From a virus (Duplodnaviria; Heunggongvirae; Uroviricota; Caudoviricetes), in IMG/VR virus record IMGVR_UViG_2711768009_000006: a stretch of 45,689 nucleotides of DNA. One strand, written 5' to 3'. Numbering within the stretch: the first letter of the stretch is position 1; each line of letters starts with the position of its first letter. Both the position numbers and the translations under genes were made by a program. The notes below the pieces were generated by a model. It searched no databases, was not told the DNA's origin, and saw only the letters and a list, made by a program, of their open reading frames with translations. Below are positions 1 to 45,689 of this stretch, piece by piece.

Positions 1-94
1 TTTATGTGAAACCGCCTGCGGGCGGTTTTGTCGTTTATGGAGCGTGAGGAATGGGTAAAGGCAGCAGTAAGGGGCATACCCCGCGCGAAGCGAA
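1..94. repeat. Terminal redundancy copy 1, identical to 45596-45689 (circular contig wrap-around)
   Basis: Direct comparison of the two window ends; the J start codon at 51 recurs at 45646. Confidence 0.97.
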
Positions 95-3000
95 AGATAA
101 CCTGAAATCCACGCAGTTACTGAGTGTGATTGATGCCATCAGCGAAGGGCCGGTTGAAGGTCCGGTGGATGGATTAAAAAGCGTGCTGCTGAACAGTACG
201 CCGGTGCTGGACAGTGAGGGGAATACCAACATCTCCGGCGTCACGGTGGTGTTCCGGGCAGGTGAGCAGGAGCAGACACCGCCGGAAGGTTTTGAATCCT
301 CCGGCTCCGAGACTGTGCTGGGTACGGAAGTGAAATATGACACGCCGATCACCCGCACCATCACGTCGGCAAACATCGACCGTCTGCGCTTTACCTTCGG
401 TGTGCAGGCACTGGTGGAAACCACCTCAAAGGGGGACAGGAATCCATCGGAAGTCCGCCTGCTGGTTCAGATACAGCGTAACGGTGGCTGGGTGACGGAA
501 AAAGACATCACCATTAAGGGCAAAACCACCTCGCAGTATCTGGCCTCGGTGGTGGTGGATAACCTGCCGCCGCGCCCGTTTAATATCCGGATGCGCAGGA
601 TGACGCCAGACAGCACCACAGACCAGCTGCAGAACAAAACGCTCTGGTCGTCATACACCGAAATCATCGATGTGAAACAGTGCTACCCGAACACGGCACT
701 GGTCGGCGTGCAGGTGGACTCGGAGCAGTTCGGCAGTCAGCAGGTGAGCCGTAATTATCATCTTCGCGGGCGCATTCTGCAGGTGCCGTCGAACTATAAC
801 CCGCAGACGCGGCAATACAGCGGTATCTGGGACGGAACGTTTAAGCCGGCATACAGCGACAACATGGCCTGGTGTCTGTGGGATATGCTGACCCACCCGC
901 GCTACGGCATGGGGAAACGTCTTGGTGCGGCGGATGTGGATAAATGGGCGCTGTATGTCATCGGCCAGTACTGCGACCAGTCAGTGCCGGACGGCTTTGG
1001 CGGCACGGAGCCGCGCATCACCTGTAATGCGTACCTGACCACACAGCGCAAGGCGTGGGATGTGCTCAGTGATTTCTGCTCGGCGATGCGCTGTATGCCG
1101 GTATGGAACGGGCAGACGCTGACGTTCGTGCAGGACCGACCATCAGATAAGGTGTGGACCTATAACCGCAGTAATGTGGTGATGCCGGATGATGGCGCGC
1201 CGTTCCGCTACAGCTTCAGCGCCCTGAAGGACCGCCATAATGCCGTTGAGGTGAACTGGATTGACCCGAACAACGGCTGGGAGACGGCGACAGAGCTTGT
1301 TGAAGATACGCAGGCCATTGCCCGTTACGGTCGTAATGTCACGAAGATGGATGCCTTTGGTTGTACCAGTCGGGGGCAGGCACACCGCGCCGGGCTGTGG
1401 CTGATTAAAACGGAACTGCTGGAAACGCAGACCGTGGACTTCAGCGTGGGTGCTGAAGGGCTTCGCCATGTACCGGGCGATGTCATTGAAATCTGCGATG
1501 ATGACTATGCCGGTATCAGCATCGGCGGGCGCGTGCTGGCGGTGAACAGCCAGACCCGGACGCTGACGCTCGACCGTGAAATCACGCTGCTATCCTCCGG
1601 TACCACGCTGATAAGCCTGGTTGACGGAAGTGGCAATCCGGTCAGCGTGGAGGTCCAGTCCGTCACCGACGGCGTGAAGGTAAAAGTGAGCCGTGTTCCT
1701 GACGGTGTTGCAGAATACAGCGTGTGGGGGCTGAAGTTGCCAACGTTGCGCCAGCGCCTGTTCCGCTGTGTGAGTATCCGTGAGAACGATGACGGCACGT
1801 ATGCCATCACCGCCGTGCAGCATGTACCGGAAAAAGAAGCCATCGTGGATAACGGGGCGCACTTTGACGGGGACCAGAGCGGCACGGTGAATGGTGTCAC
1901 TCCGCCAGCGGTGCAGCACCTGACCGCCGAAGTCACCGCAGACAGCGGGGAGTATCAGGTACTGGCCCGCTGGGACACGCCGAAGGTGGTGAAGGGCGTG
2001 AGCTTCCTGCTCCGTCTGACCGTAACAGCGGATGACGGTAGTGAGCGGCTGGTCAGCACGGCCCGGACGACGGAAACCACATACCGCTTCAGGCAGCTGG
2101 CGCTGGGGAACTACAGGCTGACAGTCCGGGCGGTAAATGCCTGGGGGCAGCAGGGTGATCCGGCGTCGGTATCATTCCGGATTGCCGCACCGGCAGCACC
2201 GTCGCGGATTGAGCTGACGCCGGGCTATTTTCAGATAACCGCCACGCCGCATCTTGCGGTTTATGACCCGACGGTACAGTTTGAGTTCTGGTTCTCGGAA
2301 AAACGGATTGCGGATATCAGGCAGGTTGAAACCAGCGCGCGTTATCTTGGTACGGCACTGTACTGGATAGCCGCCAGTATCAATATCAAACCGGGCCATG
2401 ATTATTATTTTTACGTTCGCAGTGTGAACACCGTTGGCAAATCGGCATTCGTGGAGGCTGTCGGTCAGCCGAGTGATGATGCATCAGGCTATCTGGATTT
2501 TTTCAAAGGCGAGATAGGGAAAACCCATCTGGCTCAGGAGCTGTGGACGCAGATTGATAACGGTCAGCTTGCGCCTGACCTGACTGAAATCAGGACGTCC
2601 ATAACGGATGTCAGCAATGAAATAACACAGACCGTCAATAAGAAACTGGAAGACCAGAGTGCAGCGATCCAGCAGATACAGAAGGTTCAGGTTGATACAA
2701 ATAATAACCTGAACAGCATGTGGGCAGTGAAGCTGCAGCAGATGCAGGACGGACGCCTTTATATTGCGGGTATCGGTGCCGGTATTGAGAACACCCCTGA
2801 CGGCATGCAGAGTCAGGTGCTGCTGGCAGCAGACAGGATTGCGATGATTAATCCTGCGAATGGCAACACAAAGCCGATGTTTGTTGGTCAGGGCGATCAG
2901 ATATTCATGAATGAAGTGTTCCTGAAACGCCTGACGGCCCCCACCATTACCAGCGGCGGTAATCCTCCGGCATTTTCCCTGACATCAGACGGGAGGCTGA

Positions 3001-3533
3001 CGGCGAAAAATGCCGATATCAGCGGTAACGTGAATGCGAACTCCGGGACGCTCAACAATGTCACGATTAATGAAAACTGTCAGATTAAGGGGAAACTGTC
3101 AGCCAATCAGATTGAAGGCGATATTGTCAAAACGGTCAGCAAGTCTTTCCCCCGCACGAACAGTTATGCCAGTGGCACCATCACGGTAAGAATCAGTGAT
3201 GATCAGAAATTTGACCGGCAGGTCATGATACCGCCAGTGTTATTCCGCGGTGGTAAGCATGAGAATTTCAACAGTAATAACCAACAGTCATACTGGTATT
3301 CAACCTGCCGGTTAAGAGTGAGCCGCAATGGTCAGGAGATTTTTAATCAGTCCACGACGGATGCTCAGGGCGTATTTTCCTCAGTTATAGATATGCCTGC
3401 CGGACAGGGGACGCTGACACTGACATTCACCGTATCTTCATCAGGAGCGAATAACTGGACACCAACAACCAGTATCAGCGATCTGCTGGTTGTGGTGATG
3501 AAAAAATCCACAGCAGGTATCAGTATCAGCTGA
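51..3533 (+). CDS. J: Tail tip / host-specificity protein J (lambda gpJ family)
   Basis: 1160-aa ORF; N-terminus [24 protein letters not shown] and most of the length match recalled lambda gpJ; lies after I and before lom as in lambda. Confidence 0.95.
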
Positions 3534-3551
3534 ATTTTATAACCCAGAACG

Positions 3552-3575
3552 GGCGTCAGAAATGACGCCTTTTTT
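3552..3575 (+). terminator. Rho-independent terminator-like hairpin after J
   Basis: GGCGTCA-gaaa-TGACGCC stem-loop followed by TTTTTT. Confidence 0.6.
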
Positions 3576-3599
3576 ATTGCAGAAAAGCGAGAGGTAATT

Positions 3600-4199
3600 A
3601 TGCGTAAACTTTATGCCGCCATTTTGTCCGCAGCCATTTGTCTGGCCGTATCCGGTGCGCCTGCATGGGCGTCTGAACATCAGTCCACGCTGAGCGCGGG
3701 GTATCTTCATGCCCGGACGAACGTTCCCGGCAGTGATGATCTGAACGGGATTAACGTGAAATACCGTTATGAGTTTACGGACACACTGGGGATGGTGACG
3801 TCGTTCAGCTATGCAGGAGACAAGAATCGCCAGCTGACCCGTTACAGCGATACCCGCTGGTATGAAGATTCCGTGCGTAACCGCTGGTTCAGCGTGATGG
3901 CGGGGCCGTCTGTGCGCGTGAATGAATGGTTCAGCGCGTATGCGATGGCGGGTGTGGCTTACAGCCGTGTGTCGACTTTTTCCGGGGATTATATCCGCGT
4001 AACTGACAATAAGGGGAAAACGCACGATGTGCTGACCGGAAGTGATGACGGTCGCCACAGCAACACGTCTCTGGCGTGGGGGGCTGGCGTGCAGTTTAAC
4101 CCGACCGAGTCCGTGGCCATTGATGTCGCTTATGAAGGTTCCGGCAGTGGTGACTGGCGCACTGACGGTTTCATCGTGGGTGTCGGTTATAAATTCTGA
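3600..4199 (+). CDS. lom: Outer membrane protein Lom (Ail/OmpX-like)
   Basis: 199-aa ORF with signal peptide; MRKLYAAILSAAICLAVSGAPAWA... near-identical to recalled lambda Lom; SD GAGAGG upstream. Confidence 0.93.
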   Translation: MRKLYAAILSAAICLAVSGAPAWASEHQSTLSAGYLHARTNVPGSDDLNGINVKYRYEFTDTLGMVTSFSYAGDKNRQLTRYSDTRWYEDSVRNRWFSVMAGPSVRVNEWFSAYAMAGVAYSRVSTFSGDYIRVTDNKGKTHDVLTGSDDGRHSNTSLAWGAGVQFNPTESVAIDVAYEGSGSGDWRTDGFIVGVGYKF

Positions 4200-4225
4200 T
4201 TAGCCAGGTAACACAGTATTATGAC

Positions 4226-4252
4226 AGCCCGCCGGTTCAGGCGGGCTTTTTT
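4226..4252 (+). terminator. Rho-independent terminator after lom
   Basis: AGCCCGCC-ggttca-GGCGGGCT stem followed by TTTTTT. Confidence 0.6.
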
Positions 4253-4263
4253 GTGGGGTGAAT

Positions 4264-7227
4264 ATGGCAGTAAAGATTTCAGGTGTACTGAAAGACGGCA
4301 CAGGAAAACCGGTACAGAACTGCACAATCCAGCTGAAAGCAAAACGTAACAGCACCACGGTGGTGGTGAACACGCTGGCCTCAGAAAATCCGGATGAAGC
4401 CGGGCGTTACAGCATGGACGTTGAGTACGGGCAGTACAGCGTTATTCTGTTGGTGGAGGGATTCCCGCCGTCACATGCCGGGACCATCACCGTGTATGAA
4501 GATTCCCGACCCGGTACGCTGAATGATTTTCTCGGTGCCATGACGGAGGATGATGCCCGTCCGGAGGCTCTGCGCCGTTTTGAGCTGATGGTGGAAGAGG
4601 TGGCGCGTAACGCGTCCGCAGTGGCACAGAACACGGCAGCCGCGAAGAAGTCAGCCAGTGATGCCAGAACATCTGCCCGTGAGGCGGCAACCCATGCGAC
4701 TGATGCTGCAGGCTCAGCACGTGCAGCCAGCACGTCAGCCGGACAGGCCGCGACGTCGGCTCAGGAGGCTTTTTCCAGCGCAGGAACGGCATCAGCAAAA
4801 GCCTCTGAGGCATCAAAAAGTGCTGCCGCTGCAGAGTCCTCAAAAAGCGCGGCGGCTACCAGTGCCGGTGCGGCGAAAACGTCAGAAACGAATGCGGCAG
4901 CGTCACAACAATCAGCAGCCACTTCTGCATCCACCGCGACCACGAAAGCGTCAGAAGCAGCCACTTCAGCACGGGATGCGTCGGCTTCAAAAGAGGCGGC
5001 AAAATCATCAGAAACGAACGCAGCCTCGAGCGCCAGCAGCGCAGCTTCTTCGGCAACGGCGGCAGCAAATTCTGCGAAGGCGGCAAAAACGTCCGAGACG
5101 AACGCCAGGTCTTCTGAAACGGCAGCGGGACAGAGCGCCTCAGCTGCGGCAGGCTCAAAAACAGCGGCTGCATTATCTGCCAGTGCCGCGTCAACAAGTG
5201 CCGGGCAGGCCTCAGCCAGTGCCACCGCCGCCGGAAAATCGGCAGAAAGTGCTGCATCGTCTGCTTCAACAGCCACAACGAAGGCTGGCGAAGCCGCTGT
5301 ACAGGCCAGCGCAGCAGCGAGGTCTGCTTCCGCAGCGAAGACATCCGAGACGAACGCGAAAGCGTCGGAAACCAGCGCAGAATCCTCAAAAACGGCTGCC
5401 GCATCGTCCGCCAGTTCGGCGGCGTCATCGGCATCATCTGCGTCTGCTTCAAAAGATGAGGCGACCAGACAGGCGTCAGCAGCAAAGGGCAGCGCCACGA
5501 CGGCATCCACGAAGGCGACAGAGGCAGCTGGCAGTGCGACGGCGGCAGCTCAGAGCAAAAGTACGGCGGAATCCGCGGCAACGCGCGCCGAGACAGCGGC
5601 AAAACGGGCAGAGGATATTGCATCCGCCGTGGCGCTTGAGGATGCGAGCATGACGAAAAAGGGGATAGTACAGCTCAGCAGTGCGACTAACAGCACTTCC
5701 GAGTCACTGGCGGCAACGCCAAAAGCCGTTAAGGCCGCGTATGAGCTGGCTAACGGGAAATACACCGCACAGGATGCAACGACAGCACAGAAAGGGATAG
5801 TTCAGCTTAGCAACGCGACCAACAGCACATCTGAAATGCTGGCGGCAACGCCAAAGTCGGTAAAGGCAGCCTATGACCTTGCTAACGGGAAATATACTGC
5901 TCAGGACGCTACGACAGCACAAAAAGGAATTGTCCAGCTCAGTAGTGCAACCAACAGCGCATCTGAAACGCTTGCCGCGACACCGAAAGCAGTGAAAGCA
6001 GCTAATGATAATGCGAATGGTCGGGTACCTTCTGCCCGTAAGGTGAATGGTAAGGCGCTTTCAGCGGATATAACACTGACGCCGAAAGATATTGGTACGC
6101 TTAACTCAACAACAATGTCATTCAGCGGTGGTGCTGGTTGGTTCAAATTAGCAACGGTAACCATGCCACAGGCGAGTTCTGTTGTTTCAATTACGTTGAT
6201 TGGTGGCGCGGGATTTAACGTGGGGTCACCTCAACAGGCAGGTATATCTGAACTTGTTTTGCGTGCAGGTAATGGTAATCCGAAGGGGATTACTGGTGCT
6301 TTATGGCAGCGCACATCGACAGGGTTTACAAATTTTGCCTGGGTCAATACATCTGGTGATACTTACGATATTTACGTTGCAATCGGAAATTATGCGACTG
6401 GTGTAAATATTCAATGGGATTATACCAGTAATGCCAGCGTGACGATTCATACGTCACCAGCATATTCTGCTAATAAGCCGGAAGGGTTAACGGACGGTAC
6501 AGTTTATTCACTCTATACGCCATCAGAGCAGTTTTATCCGCCTGGCGCACCAATCCCGTGGCCATCAGATACCGTTCCGTCTGGCTATGCCCTGATGCAG
6601 GGGCAGACTTTTGACAAATCTGCATACCCGAAACTTGCAGCCGCTTATCCGTCAGGCGTGATCCCTGATATGCGTGGCTGGACGATTAAGGGCAAACCCG
6701 CCAGTGGTCGTGCCGTATTGTCTCAGGAACAGGACGGCATTAAATCGCACACCCACAGCGCCAGCGCATCCAGTACGGATTTGGGGACGAAAAACACATC
6801 GTCGTTTGATTACGGAACCAAATCCACGAATAACACCGGGGCGCATACCCATAGTATTAGCGGGACTGCAAATAGTGCCGGTGCGCACCAACACAAGAGT
6901 TCCGGTGCATTTGGTGGCACGAATACGAGCATTTTTCCTAATGGTTATACCGCGATTTCAAATCTGAGCGCGGGGATTATGAGCACAACAAGCGGTAGTG
7001 GCCAGACTCGTAATGCAGGGAAGACATCATCAGATGGTGCTCATACCCACTCGCTGTCCGGCACTGCTGCAAGCGCAGGCGCACATGCACATACTGTCGG
7101 TATTGGTGCTCATACGCACTCCGTTGCGATTGGCTCACATGGACACACCATCACCGTTAACGCTGCTGGTAACGCGGAAAACACCGTCAAAAACATCGCA
7201 TTTAACTATATTGTGAGGCTTGCATAA
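4264..7227 (+). CDS. stf: Side tail fiber protein Stf
   Basis: ATG at 4264 gives [26 protein letters not shown]..., matching recalled lambda Stf N-terminus; Ala/Ser/Thr-rich shaft; C-terminal His/Gly-rich region ending [11 protein letters not shown]. An upstream GTG at 4258 is an alternative start. Confidence 0.88.
5659..6010 (+). repeat. In-frame 132-bp (44-aa) tandem repeats, about 2.7 copies, inside stf
   Basis: Repeated peptide KGIVQLS(S/N)ATNS(T/A)SExLAATPK(A/S)VKAAY(E/D)[15 protein letters not shown] with unit starts at 5659, 5791 and 5923. Confidence 0.8.
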
Positions 7228-7802
7228 TGGCATTCAGAATGAGTGAACAACCACGGACCATAAAAATTTATAATCTGCTGGCCGGAACTAATGAATTTAT
7301 TGGTGAAGGTGATGCATATATTCCGCCTCATACAGGTCTGCCAGCAAACAGTACCGACATTGCACCGCCAGATATTCCAGCTGGCTTCGTGGCTGTTTTC
7401 AACAGTGATGAGTCATCGTGGCATCTCGTTGAAGATCATCGGGGTAAAACGGTTTATGACGTGGCATCAGGGGACGCGTTATTTATTTCTGAACTCGGTC
7501 CGTTACCGGAAAATGTTACTTGGTTGTCGCCGGAAGGGGAATATCAGAAGTGGAACGGTACAGCTTGGGTGAAAGATGCAGAAGCAGAAAAACTATTCCG
7601 GATCCGGGAGGCGGAAGAAACAAAAAACAGCCTGATGCAGGTAGCCAGTGAGCATATTGCGCCGCTTCAGGATGCTGCAGATCTGGAAATCGCAACGGAG
7701 GAAGAAACCTCGTTGCTGGAAGCCTGGAAAAAGTATCGGGTGTTGCTGAACCGTGTTGATACATCACTATCTCCAGATATCGAGTGGCCAAGTCAACCAT
7801 AA
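7227..7802 (+). CDS. tfa: Tail fiber assembly protein Tfa
   Basis: 191-aa [27 protein letters not shown]... matching recalled lambda Tfa; start overlaps the stf stop. Confidence 0.92.
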
Positions 7803-7810
7803 ATCAATAT

Positions 7811-7827
7811 CCCCTGCAATGCAGGGG
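7811..7827. terminator. Hairpin between convergent tfa and sopB (possible bidirectional terminator)
   Basis: CCCCTGC-aat-GCAGGGG perfect stem-loop in the 32-bp gap between two convergent stop codons. Confidence 0.5.
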
Positions 7828-7834
7828 ATAGTTC

Positions 7835-8800
7835 TTAATTATCAGTAGATTGTTCCTCTAGTAACAACTCAATTCTGCTTAGTATTTCTTTAGATATTTT
7901 GCGGCTATCAATTTTTATAGTTACAAAATTACCTTTATATCTGGCCGTGATCCCTTCCCCATATTTTTTCTCGTCTTTTGTTTTTTCCTCGCCGCCAACC
8001 AGAACAGAGTCAGATAATATTTGTATAATCCGTGAAGCTTCTAAATCCTCGCCGTTTTTTTTAATTGCCAGAAGATGATGAGCAGCATTGCTCATGGCAG
8101 CCATGTTTTTTTTGTAAACCTTAAACAAAGAATCTCCAGCACGAGCTGACAGTTCTCCTGGATGATTGAAGATAGCTAATATATCTTTTGGTAGACCAGC
8201 TGTATTAATACAGCGAGTGATAATATTTCTATCTATATTTTCAGCCTCGGCTAATGCTTTAACGTTACCATCAAAGTCATTTAGCTTGCGTAAGTATCTC
8301 TTTCCTCTTTCGTATGCACTAATAGGCCTATAATCGTTACCAATTTGGGATAACCAATGCATCTGTTCATCGTCGAGATCAGCAATTAAGACGCGATAGT
8401 CACATCCTGTTAATATCGCTGCTTTTCTTCTACGTGAGCCGTCAGCGACTTCAACGATTCCAGATACTTTTCTGGCGAAAGCTGGATTTTGTTGTCCAGA
8501 CGTTAGAAAAGATGGGATTAAATCGGCTAGAGAGGATTCATTTAATAAATCTTGATCGCGTTCATTACCTAGCCATACCATTGTTGCCATTTCAACTTTA
8601 TCTGCGGGAATTGTCTCTAACTTAAAGTTAACATTACGTCCGCATACTGGCAAAGTTATGCTGTTACCGGTTAATGAACTCAGTTGACGTTTTAAATCAC
8701 CAACCATAGGTGATACGGGCTGATGTTCAGGGGCATGATGATTATTACTCATAATGCGATTAATATCTGGAGCATTTTTTAGAAGAGAGCGCTGTTTCAT
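7835..8800 (-). CDS. sopB: ParB-family partition protein SopB
   Basis: 321-aa ORF immediately downstream of and overlapping the ParA gene; size and sequence character resemble F/N15 SopB. Confidence 0.85.
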   Translation of the reverse strand: MKQRSLLKNAPDINRIMSNNHHAPEHQPVSPMVGDLKRQLSSLTGNSITLPVCGRNVNFKLETIPADKVEMATMVWLGNERDQDLLNESSLADLIPSFLTSGQQNPAFARKVSGIVEVADGSRRRKAAILTGCDYRVLIADLDDEQMHWLSQIGNDYRPISAYERGKRYLRKLNDFDGNVKALAEAENIDRNIITRCINTAGLPKDILAIFNHPGELSARAGDSLFKVYKKNMAAMSNAAHHLLAIKKNGEDLEASRIIQILSDSVLVGGEEKTKDEKKYGEGITARYKGNFVTIKIDSRKISKEILSRIELLLEEQSTDN

Positions 8801-9966
8801 TATTCGTTCTCCCAGCGAGGTTTTATTAGATCATCAAAAATTTCTCGGCAAACAGGGTCCCATATAGAAACAGCATTTCTCCATGCATTCAATGTTGAAC
8901 GTTGGTTTGCTGCTTGTTCAAATACTGTTCTCATTTTTATCTGGCCTTTACCTACTTCATCGGTAACGCGTACAACCTGACGTAATACCATTGATCCCCA
9001 TGTATTTCTTATTTGTTCTTCCATCCATCGTGATTGATTCCCTGTAGTGATACTATATTTAGTCAGAAGTAAGCGAACGGTTGGCTCAAATCCACCTAGG
9101 TCAACGCTTTCCAATAGATCGAGAAGCATTGTGAAAAACTGTAGAACAGAAGCGTAATCAAATAATTCTGCAGGTGTAGCAACAACAATAACGTCAGCGG
9201 CACAAACAACGTTAATGGTTCCTGTACCGAGGTTCGGAGCACTATCTATAACGATAACATCGTAGTTATCCCAAACTGATTCAATAGCTGCGCGCAGCAT
9301 AAGGTGTGGAGGATGAGGCAATTTACCCTGAGCATGATATTGCATGAGATCTGTTTCTATACGATGTAAAGCTAGGCAGCTAGGGATAATGTCTAGCCCA
9401 GGCCAACATGTTGGCTTTATAGCATATTCAGCGTTATCGCGTTCTCCTAAGTAAAATGGCAGTAAAGTATCCTCGGCATGGATATGTAAATCAGGAACAT
9501 AACCGTGATACATAGAGGCCGTGCCTTGAGGATCGTTACCTTCAACCAAAAGAACACGATGACCTTGTAATGCTAACCATTGAGCTTGATGTACCGCAGA
9601 CGATGTTTTATAAACGCCGCCTTTGTGTGACATAACGGCAAGCACAACAGGGTTTTTATCTTGTGGTCGTTGGTTTGGGTTGCCAAAAACTGCTCGCATA
9701 CTGTTGATTTGATCTATGGTATAACCAGCACGACGTTCAATTCTTCCTCTCATTTCAAAGTCAGGTGCAGGTAAACGCCCGCTCTTCTCAGCATCTCTAA
9801 TTGCTTGAGGAGTTACACCAATTAAATCTGCTACTTCAGTTATACCCCATCGGCGGGTGATACGCCGAGCTTCAGGACTATCATCACCGAATTGAGCGAT
9901 AGCAATTGCTTGGGTCATTTCTTGACCTCTCGTAACACAATCTTGCAATAACTTTTTCAAAGACAT
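8800..9966 (-). CDS. sopA: ParA-family partition ATPase SopA
   Basis: 388-aa ORF; deviant Walker A KGGVYKT; long stretches recalled as near-identical to F-plasmid SopA (e.g. AHKGGVYKT, LVEGNDPQGTASMYHG, KPTCWPGLDIIPSCLALHRIE). Confidence 0.9.
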   Translation of the reverse strand: MSLKKLLQDCVTRGQEMTQAIAIAQFGDDSPEARRITRRWGITEVADLIGVTPQAIRDAEKSGRLPAPDFEMRGRIERRAGYTIDQINSMRAVFGNPNQRPQDKNPVVLAVMSHKGGVYKTSSAVHQAQWLALQGHRVLLVEGNDPQGTASMYHGYVPDLHIHAEDTLLPFYLGERDNAEYAIKPTCWPGLDIIPSCLALHRIETDLMQYHAQGKLPHPPHLMLRAAIESVWDNYDVIVIDSAPNLGTGTINVVCAADVIVVATPAELFDYASVLQFFTMLLDLLESVDLGGFEPTVRLLLTKYSITTGNQSRWMEEQIRNTWGSMVLRQVVRVTDEVGKGQIKMRTVFEQAANQRSTLNAWRNAVSIWDPVCREIFDDLIKPRWENE

Positions 9967-9984
9967 ACTGTCATCTCCAGCTTG

Positions 9985-10068
9985 TAACTTTGCTTAATAA
10001 TTAAATCTTTGCTTATTTCTAGCAAATTTGCATGAAAAAGGCAAAGCAAAACAAAAAACGCAAAGGCG
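9985..10068 (-). promoter_or_regulatory. Putative sopAB promoter/operator with CTTTGC/GCAAAG repeats
   Basis: CTTTGC at 9988-9993 and 10007-10012; GCAAAG at 10041-10046 and 10060-10065, directly upstream of the sopA start. F SopA autoregulates through CTTTGC operator repeats (established knowledge). Confidence 0.5.
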
Positions 10069-10313
10069 AATATTTGAGCTAAATCATCTTTTGTTCCCCT
10101 CCAGAAATGCATAAAACGAACAACAATATAATCATAACTAATTGATATTTATTACCTTTTCTAAGAAAGGAAATCATATAAAACTAGAGAAACATGATAA
10201 GAATCATCAATGAGATACGTTTTCTATATTAGTTATCCTAACCTTACCAACATAAGAACACAAACAGAGAACATAAAAACAAAGTAATAATACAAACACA
10301 ATAAAGAACATAA

Positions 10314-10337
10314 NNNNNNNNNNNNNNNNNNNNNNNN
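10314..10337. other. Assembly gap or masked bases (24 N)
   Basis: Run of 24 n characters immediately left of the telO palindrome. Confidence 0.99.
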
Positions 10338-10361
10338 CCCATTATACGCGCGTATAATGGG
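10338..10361. other. telO-type telomere resolution palindrome (protelomerase target)
   Basis: Perfect 24-bp palindrome CCCATTATACGCGCGTATAATGGG, which contains the recalled N15 telO core CCATTATACGCGCGTATAATGG; about 180 bp upstream of telN. The expected left flanking arm is replaced by the N run. Confidence 0.75.
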
Positions 10362-10540
10362 GAATTATGTGCTGATTTTTAGAACAAAGTCAAGGAACAA
10401 ATTTTAACGTTCCGACATTGTGTTTTTGTTTATTATCCGTTATTATGTTCTGTTAGTTTGTGGCTAAGTTAACGCGTTATTAGTTATCTTATTCTCAAAT
10501 TGTGTTACGATAATCAGAGCTGATAATCAGGAGAGGAAAG

Positions 10541-12430
10541 ATGAGCAAAGTAAAAATCGGTGAATTAATAAACTCACTTGTTAGCGATGTTGAGTCAATA
10601 GATAACTCTGACCGTCCTCAAGGGGAAAAAACAAAAAAAATAAAGGCTGTTGCATTAAAATTTAAAAATGCATTATTTAATGATAAGCGAAAGTTTAGGG
10701 GGAAAGGATTAGAAAAAAGAATTACAGCCAACACATTCAATGCCTATATGAGCAGGGCCAGAAAACGGTTTGATGATAAACTTCATCATAGCTTTGAAAA
10801 AAATATACATCGCCTATCTGAAAAGTATCCTTTATATAATGAGGAGCTATTGTCATGGCTTTCTCTACCTGCTGCCGATATTCGCCAGAGAATGTCAGCT
10901 TTACAGGCAAAATTAAAATTAATTCTCCCTTTATCAGAAGATTTATCTAATATCAGAATTGGTGATAACAAAAGTCATAATAAGTTATTAAAATTATCAA
11001 ATAAATATAAAGAGTGGCAATTCGCCATATCTGATTTAACTAGCGATAACTGGAAAGATAAGCGCGATTATTTATATAAATTACTACAGCAAGGATCTGC
11101 CTTACTTGAAGAGTTGAATCAGCTAAAAGTTAACCATGAGATTCTCTATCATCTTCAACTAAGCCCTGCCGAACGCGCATCTATCCAGCAACGATGGGCG
11201 GACGTTCTGCACAATAAGAAACGTAACGTGGTGGTCATTGATTACCCTAAATATATGCAAGCTATTTACGATATTATAAATAGCCCTGCTACATTAAATA
11301 ATCTAAACACTCGTTCAGGTATGGCTCCTTTGGCATTTGCACTTGCTGCATTGTCAGGAAGACGAATGATTGAGATTATGTATCAAGGTACATTTACTGT
11401 TTCTGGTAAGTATACCGTTGATTTTTTAGGCCAAGCAAAAAAAAGAACTTCTGATGATATAACCAGAAAAATATATACATTATGCGAAGCAAAAACATTT
11501 GTTTATTTAATAAATGTACTTCGCTCATGCCCAGCAGCATCTGATTTTGATGATGTCGTTAAAGGTTATGGAGATAACGACACACGCTCTGAAAACGGAC
11601 GGATTAATGCCATATTAGCAAAGGCTTTTAACCCGTGGGTCAAATCATTTTTCAAAGATGACCGCCGTGTTTATAAAGATAGTCGTGCTATTTATGCCCG
11701 TATTGCGTATGAAATGTTTTTCCGCGTAGATCCTCGTTGGAAAAACGTAGATGAGGATGTTTTCTTTATGGAAATTTTAGGCCATGACGATGAAAACACT
11801 CAATTACACTATAAGCAATTCAAGCTGGCCAACTTCTCAAAGACATGGAGGCCAAATACTGGAAACGAAAATACCAGGCTGGAAGCATTGCAGCAGCTTG
11901 ATGACGAAATGCCAGGATTCGCCAGAGGAGATGCCGGGGTTCGTCTGCATAACACAGTTAAGCAGCTGGTAGAGCATGACCCCTCTATAAAAATCACGAA
12001 CAGCACTCTAAGAGCATTCAAATTTAGCCCTACAATGATTAGTCGATACCTGGAATTTGCTGCTGATGCTCTGGGGCAATTTGTTGGCGAAAATGGACAA
12101 TGGCAGCTGAAAATAGATTCTCCAGAAATCGTTATGCCTGACGAAGAAGAGCTGGAAGCAATACCTGAACAGACGGATGAATTATCAGAGGATGACGATC
12201 TGGATGACGACGAAATTGAGATAGAGGAAGAGGAAGAGAGCGTAGAAGAACAGCAACCGCCCGCGCCTTCTTCACCTGTATCTAAGCCGGTATTTAAGCC
12301 TGTGAGAAATATTGGTGATGGCTCATACGTTGTTGAGTTTCATTATAATGGCCAGAATTATGCTTGGTCCGGCAGTGCAAACAGCCCTATATCAGCAATG
12401 CAGTTAGCATGGCTGACATATTTCGGATAA
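10541..12430 (+). CDS. telN: Protelomerase TelN (telomere resolvase)
   Basis: 629-aa ORF with SD AGGAGAGG; sequence (MSKVKIGELIN..., RSGMAPLAFALA..., EILGHDDENTQLHYKQFKLANFS...) matches recalled N15 TelN; adjacent to telO; acidic C-terminal tail. Confidence 0.9.
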   Translation: MSKVKIGELINSLVSDVESIDNSDRPQGEKTKKIKAVALKFKNALFNDKRKFRGKGLEKRITANTFNAYMSRARKRFDDKLHHSFEKNIHRLSEKYPLYNEELLSWLSLPAADIRQRMSALQAKLKLILPLSEDLSNIRIGDNKSHNKLLKLSNKYKEWQFAISDLTSDNWKDKRDYLYKLLQQGSALLEELNQLKVNHEILYHLQLSPAERASIQQRWADVLHNKKRNVVVIDYPKYMQAIYDIINSPATLNNLNTRSGMAPLAFALAALSGRRMIEIMYQGTFTVSGKYTVDFLGQAKKRTSDDITRKIYTLCEAKTFVYLINVLRSCPAASDFDDVVKGYGDNDTRSENGRINAILAKAFNPWVKSFFKDDRRVYKDSRAIYARIAYEMFFRVDPRWKNVDEDVFFMEILGHDDENTQLHYKQFKLANFSKTWRPNTGNENTRLEALQQLDDEMPGFARGDAGVRLHNTVKQLVEHDPSIKITNSTLRAFKFSPTMISRYLEFAADALGQFVGENGQWQLKIDSPEIVMPDEEELEAIPEQTDELSEDDDLDDDEIEIEEEEESVEEQQPPAPSSPVSKPVFKPVRNIGDGSYVVEFHYNGQNYAWSGSANSPISAMQLAWLTYFG

Positions 12431-24768: not shown

Positions 24769-24996
24769 ATGAATATTAATGAAATTCGTGGAAATATGAC
24801 CGAAGCGGCCCTGAGTGTGGAATGTGTTATGCGTGGATATCCACGCATTTCCTTGAAAGAGTTAAGCGAAGCCTGTTTTTTGAGTCAGGCTGCCGTTGAA
24901 TTTATCATCGAACAGATGATCTGTTTTGGGGTTGCAAAGCGTAGCGGGTCTGGTCGATATTCTTTGACCGATGAATATAAGCAGGCAACTTTCTAA
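24769..24996 (+). CDS. Hypothetical protein (75 aa)
   Basis: ORF with SD GAGAGG. Confidence 0.45.
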   Translation: MNINEIRGNMTEAALSVECVMRGYPRISLKELSEACFLSQAAVEFIIEQMICFGVAKRSGSGRYSLTDEYKQATF

Positions 24997-45595: not shown

Positions 45596-45689
45596 TTTAT
45601 GTGAAACCGCCTGCGGGCGGTTTTGTCGTTTATGGAGCGTGAGGAATGGGTAAAGGCAGCAGTAAGGGGCATACCCCGCGCGAAGCGAA
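45596..45689. repeat. Terminal redundancy copy 2, identical to 1-94 (includes the first 44 nt of J)
   Basis: Direct comparison with the window start. Confidence 0.97.

Follow-up and report, generated by a model that had tools for sequence, protein, structure and literature searches.

Background

The closest described counterparts of the locus studied here are the telomere resolution sites of N15-type temperate phages. Following circularisation through cos, a protelomerase makes staggered cuts in telRL, after which the overhangs fold back and are rejoined as hairpins, and the product is a linear plasmid prophage that is permuted by ~50% relative to the virion DNA (PMC10612081, PMC3540006, PMC2847241). 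The N15 telRL/tos site (NC_001901, 24775-24830, cut at 24802/3) is annotated as a 56-bp "inverted repeat containing cut site for prophage formation", TATCAGCACACAATTGCCCATTATACGCGCGTATAATGGACTATTGTGTGCTGATA, and includes telO, a perfect palindrome of 22 bp. Klebsiella phage phiKO2 with its protelomerase TelK (2V6E) and Yersinia phage PY54, whose pal/Tel system works by the same mechanism (PMC3540006), are two further points of comparison. Nearer relatives exist as public records, namely PhiR46_1 (PV340565), YDC107_1 (CP025712) and pAH01-1 (NZ_CP055252), of which PhiR46_1 was submitted in its linear prophage form and carries telL and telR as annotated features.

Here, we analyse a stretch of 45,689 nt (the window) in which a sequence-only reading had placed a telomere resolution site with its left arm replaced by a run of N. 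The window very probably represents, as a circular assembly, the entire genome of a temperate E. coli phage that is N15-like (Ravinvirus-type), in which positions ~10256-10540, together with 97 hidden nt, constitute telRL in a tos-like array and the 24 N are a hairpin-linked assembly placeholder. The reading was correct in its essentials, and what it describes is a well-known N15-type system combined with an assembly artefact. Telomere resolution of this type is textbook for the phage group, E. coli, Shigella and E. albertii commonly carry phage-plasmids that are almost the same, and no new biology is involved. The practical use of the locus lies in a caveat for annotation: at a hairpin telomere, an assembly may stop, fold back or gain a gap that is not to scale.

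Results and discussion

Genome form and gene neighbourhood

The first 94 nt of the window are repeated directly at its end (1-94 = 45596-45689), a terminal overlap that identifies the window as a circularised graph assembly of a whole element of ~45.6 kb; its length would fit a de Bruijn assembly with k=95. The point at which the circle was opened is arbitrary, being neither cos nor a telomere, and lies a short distance upstream of the gene for a lambda-J-like tail tip protein (51-3533).

The genes around the site are arranged as in N15 (gene 27, gene 28, telRL, gene 29), in the order sopB-sopA, tel site, telN. The sopB/parB gene for a centromere-binding protein (7835..8800, minus strand) lies to the left of the sopA/parA gene for a partition ATPase (8800..9966, minus strand), which is transcribed away from the tel site, again as in N15. 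The dyad at 10349|10350 falls between the sopA start at 9966 and the telN start at 10541 on the plus strand.

The telN gene (10541..12430, plus strand) encodes a protelomerase of 629 aa that matches four Pfam families far above their cut-offs (TelK_N, muzzle, ResT-TelK catalytic and stirrup) and can be aligned end to end with phiKO2 TelK (PDB 2V6E, E=8e-295), with which it shares fold, domains and active-site residues. Its catalytic Tyr424 is the counterpart of TelK Tyr425 in this alignment. The other conserved residues align with TelK R275, K300 and H416, in a numbering that we take to be that of Aihara et al. 2007. Identity amounts to 76.7% with N15 TelN, 73% with TelK and only 43% with PY54 Tel, and reaches 98% in the Escherichia phages PhiR46_1 and YDC107_1 (the latter classified in Ravinvirus) and in E. 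coli linear phage-plasmids such as pAH01-1; the DNA of these phages and phage-plasmids is 97-99.8% identical. In the contig collection that was searched, 1,202 indexed blocks contain exactly this TelN protein.

The core palindrome and its identity with N15 telO

The sequence CCCATTATACGCGCGTATAATGGG at 10338-10361 is a perfect 24-bp palindrome centred on 10349|10350, directly 3' of the N-run. No other perfect palindrome of the window is as long; the runner-up measures 20 bp, and the chance expectation for such palindromes, given the length and composition of the window, is ~0.0026. With 179 nt between its end and the telN ATG at 10541, it matches the perfect 24-bp palindrome about 180 bp upstream of telN that the sequence-only reading had described. 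The AT-rich flanks with an inverted repeat, part of the same description, are present as well: GC content is 25% in the left flank (197 nt) and 34% in the right flank as against 50% in the whole window, and AGAACATAA (10305-10313) pairs 9/9 with TTATGTTCT (10443-10451), as computed on a 100% identical public locus (L057).

What identifies the palindrome is that it contains the 22-bp telO of N15, CCATTATACGCGCGTATAATGG, unchanged (22/22). The central 22 bp of the N15 site thus lie within a perfect palindrome that is 24 bp long here, as against 22 bp in N15. The right arm at 10362..10376 (GAATTATGTGCTGAT) is the counterpart of N15 R1 (ACTATTGTGTGCTGAT) and agrees with N15 at 11 of 14 aligned arm positions, whereas the flanking spacer is only ~60-70% alike. 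The same palindrome recurs in PhiR46_1, where telL and telR are annotated at it, and in YDC107_1 and pAH01-1. The central CCCATTATACGCGCGTATAATGGG is also common to phiKO2, in which the perfect palindrome measures 28 bp, and a central TACGCGCGTA is common to PY54, although the 42-bp palindrome of that phage is otherwise different. The proposed identity as a telomere resolution site therefore stands on an unchanged N15 telO, on a location that, as in N15, is between sopA and telN, and on a bona fide protelomerase gene next door.

A palindrome between divergent genes could in principle serve the sopA-telN intergenic region simply as an operator or terminator, and a terminator-like hairpin and promoter-like hexamers do occur nearby. 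A promoter and terminator scan of this intergenic region returned matches no more numerous than in shuffles. Identity with the experimentally defined cut site of N15, and public contigs that fold back at the palindrome centre (see below), leave an operator or terminator with a negligible probability and practically refute it.

The sequence behind the gap

The only N-run of the window occupies 10314-10337 and is exactly 24 N long, with ...AAGAACATAA at its left edge and CCCATTATACG at its right edge. Sister contigs were found by exact-protein look-ups, that is, as public isolate contigs with the same ParA, TelN and tail-fibre proteins. One of these, CWUS01000020.1 (locus L057), has 0 mismatches with the window in 11,630 flanking nt, in stretches that correspond to window 1-10313 (10,313 nt) and 10338-11654 (1,317 nt), and carries 97 nt, ATAAAGAATTAAACAAATGTTAAATAAAAACAGCACGCAAACTGAGAACATTACATTAGACGAGAGCACTAATCAAGAACATAACGAAACATAATTT, at the position of the 24 N. 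The same 97 nt are present in two further independent assemblies (L044 and L048), and a variant of 98 nt in pAH01-1 and one IMG/VR contig. More than 15 contigs carry the left flank and in all of them it continues as ATAAAGAATTAAAC..., while the spacing from flank to palindrome is 97-98 nt wherever a contig has both.

Since the 24 N of the window are matched by 97 nt in an otherwise identical contig, the N-run at 10314..10337 is a placeholder that is not to scale rather than a base-for-base mask, as is typical of an assembly or scaffold gap whose N-run length (24) is unrelated to the true length (97) and whose flanks match gap-free assemblies. If the true distance is 97 nt and the scaffolder put it at 24, the discrepancy would be within the usual error of paired-end scaffolding. 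It could alternatively be supposed that the run masks a true stretch of 24 nt, in which case this phage would have a natural deletion of 73 nt beside telO and a hidden sequence unlike that of its sisters; the length of the run does equal that of the adjoining palindrome, and some public stretches carry N masks. Such a deletion would, however, remove the left arm, which every relative has kept, in a phage that is 100.000% identical to CWUS01000020.1, L059 and L061 right up to the gap edge, and it would set the window apart from all the contigs in which the flank continues over 97-98 nt to the palindrome. We regard a mask or deletion as very improbable.

The left arm and its two types

The position of the gap was read correctly in the sequence-only description, in that the N-run does stand in place of the left arm; its scale was not, as 97 nt are hidden rather than a 24-nt arm. 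The hidden 97 nt (28% GC) hold two GAACA boxes, at -64 and -33 from the centre, and end in the left arm, which reads AACGAAACATAATTT in the sister contig. In this lineage the arm does not mirror the right one: of 15 positions, 10 agree with the mirrored right arm and five depart from it. The site as a whole comprises the perfect 24-bp palindrome within a 42-bp palindrome with one T:G mismatch, outside of which the arms diverge (CGAAAC versus the mirror CAGCAC). N15, in comparison, has arms that agree at 13 of the 14 aligned positions of the annotated 56-bp site, and PhiR46_1 has a perfect 56-bp palindrome with the symmetric left arm ATCAGCACATAATTT.

Two types of left arm are found in the phage group, a mirror-like one, ATCAGCACATAATT, and the degenerate one of this phage, AACGAAACATAATT, as compared at L057 10633-10647 versus L003 3255-3269, L027 and L034. 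The symmetric type (also written ATCAGCAC) occurs in PhiR46_1 and some IMG/VR relatives, and the annotated telR end of PhiR46_1 is formed by it. The degenerate arm occurs in contigs that fold back at telR (L004 and L045-47), hence it is evidently resolved in vivo, and these contigs argue that TelN accepts an asymmetric left arm.

Fold-backs and contig ends at the dyad

We collected 45 public loci that carry the palindrome and scored as a fold-back any perfect inverted duplication that has the dyad as its exact centre and extends for 150 nt or more, and as a contig end any contig that terminates within a few dozen nt of the palindrome. The loci comprise ~14 fold-backs, ~17 contig ends and ~14 intact left/right junctions, so that about two-thirds of the palindrome contigs stop or fold back at its centre, which is the signature of a hairpin telomere. 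The fold-backs include a telL-telL' contig assembled by MEGAHIT at k=119 (L041) whose telN side shows 100% identity with the window, and telR-telR' contigs (L045-47), folding back on the sop side, with the ParA protein of the window and exactly its 40-nt left flank, in addition to further telL (L042) and telR (L004 and L049) cases. A fold-back recovered at k=119 across a palindrome of 24 bp must derive from real reads, either by read-through of the hairpin or from the replicated form. On this indirect evidence from sister assemblies, the site appears to be resolved into two hairpin telomeres at its dyad, and the element of this sample was, by the same token, presumably in hairpin form.

Resolution of the site in this phage would proceed as follows. 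Following cos circularisation, a TelN dimer would bind the palindrome and its arms and make staggered cuts around 10349|10350 through a 3'-phosphotyrosyl intermediate at Tyr424; protelomerase cuts have a 6-bp stagger. Each strand would then be rejoined to its own complement, which would give a telL hairpin on the right, next to telN, and a telR hairpin on the left, next to sopAB, with the dyad centre as the hairpin tip. The telL-telL' and telR-telR' junctions that arise after replication would be resolved in the same manner.

Complete records of the group are also affected. The GenBank "complete genome" of YDC107_1 (L001, CP025712.1, 922-5105) contains a fold-back with an inverted, frameshifted second copy of telN. 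In PLSDB, 32 records match, their hosts being E. coli, Shigella sonnei, E. albertii and Enterobacter, and several PLSDB/RefSeq plasmids of 61-91 kb have 2-4 copies of the query. Fold-back artefacts of the same group occur in NZ_LT906558, NZ_CP014491, NZ_CP126957, NZ_CP019258, CP088562, CP088810 and CP088559, and one public record of 4.4 kb is a pure fold-back. Assembly faults induced by hairpins thus lead to linear phage-plasmids being deposited as circles, dimers or gapped scaffolds. A circular topology had been named as an outcome that would speak against telomere resolution; public labels are uninformative in this respect, as several records of the group are called circular, among them pAH01-1, the closest complete relative. 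Besides pAH01-1, pEC21Z151-46K is labelled circular.

Cause of the gap

The idea that a hairpin telomere caused the gap receives circumstantial support, as fold-backs at the palindrome centre, of the telL-telL' and of the telR-telR' kind, occur in contigs that are identical to the window, and many others end there. The two edges of the gap differ in character. The right-hand piece starts 12 nt from the dyad on its left side, at the first base of the palindrome. Intact junctions have a T immediately ahead of the palindrome, and telL fold-backs have a C. This difference falls exactly on the right edge of the gap, so that the piece ends where the sequences of junction and fold-back begin to disagree. 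On the left, four sister contigs (CWV* series) end 31, 43, 44 and 60 nt past the left edge of the gap while others reach the palindrome, and the telR side lost 0-110 nt before the tip in the sister assemblies; we assume that this scatter reflects a decay of coverage toward a closed DNA end. The 24 N would accordingly join two pieces of a short-read assembly and have no biological meaning, the telR-side piece having broken off 109 nt before the hairpin tip and the telL-side piece 12 nt past it.

The position of the right edge could also be sought in a pure k-mer rule, by which a unitig passes the centre of a hairpin by (k-1)/2 nt. The rule fits one Logan contig (L049), which passes the centre by 15 nt, if k=31, the value that we take Logan to use. 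Applied to the window it needs k=25, a value at odds with the k=95 suggested by the terminal overlap of 94 nt, and the T/C divergence is preferred.

A generic assembly failure that is unrelated to hairpins, through low coverage of AT-rich DNA or through mixed strains in a variable spacer, would agree with the 28% GC of the hidden 97 nt and with spacers that differ between lineages, e.g., L006 versus L057. AT-richness as the cause is contradicted by the 197 nt to the left of the gap, which were assembled although they are even more AT-rich (25% GC) than the missing stretch, and a generic failure would leave unexplained both a right edge that coincides to the base with the divergence of junction and fold-back and the repeated breaks and fold-backs of isolate assemblies of the same phage at one place. 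A failure of this kind is unlikely, with a small remaining probability, and the attribution of the scaffold gap to hairpin ends is well supported, if by way of comparison with other assemblies.

Flanking repeats of the tos-like array

Both flanks contain GAACA boxes. The outer left flank (10256..10313, plus strand) has three, at 10256-10260, 10269-10273 and 10306-10310, which with the 97 nt restored are at -167, -154 and -117 from the true centre; the right flank, which includes the telN leader (10377..10540, plus strand), has boxes at 10382-10386 (+32) and 10395-10399 (+45) and an inverted TGTTC at 10446-10450 (+96). Together with the two boxes hidden by the gap, the series is -167, -154, -117, -64, -33, +32 and +45 in one orientation and +96 in the inverted one, at a density of 15 boxes per kb as compared with 3 per kb window-wide. 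A 22-nt direct repeat has its first copy in 10256-10313 and two of its three copies inside the gap.

In N15, the boxes are at -155, -120, -107, -65, -33, +32 and +45, with inverted ones at +72, +96 and +140, so that -155, -65/-64, -33, +32, +45 and the inverted +96 are alike in the two phages. The +32 and +45 boxes were found in 11/11 N15-like loci examined and are absent from phiKO2, which has GTACA/TAACA instead of GAACA, and from PY54, which has no GAACA at the conserved offsets. The block ATTGTGTTACGATA (10499-10512) ahead of telN is invariant with N15. Conservation of box offsets extends over this phage, N15 (L053 2540-3000), Enterobacter phage MStein-2023a and IMG/VR relatives. Most likely, the GAACA boxes are what is known in N15 as the outer tos repeats. 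They presumably correspond to the repeats named L2/L3/R2/R3 (Deneke et al. 2000/2002; Ravin's reviews), which are reported to be bound by TelN.

Boxes in the same orientation at fixed distances, in combination with a degenerate left arm, could also be read to mean that tos is a functionally asymmetric complex to which a second factor or extra TelN protomers bind directionally; if true, telR and telL could be handled differently, or resolution could be coupled to promoter control of sop and telN. As another option, the N-run might hide a rearranged left half-site in this isolate. We consider such readings quite improbable.

Minor features between sopA and the site

Just upstream of sopA, at ~9985-10075 of the window, GCAAAG/CTTTGC repeats occur in an inverted arrangement that is also found upstream of N15 sopA, and they are probably a sop operator or autoregulation site. 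The sopA start is overlapped by an ORF of 51 codons on the minus strand (9957-10112), which the PhiR46_1 annotation lists as hypothetical. The records of PhiR46_1, YDC107_1 and pAH01-1 type have no N gap.
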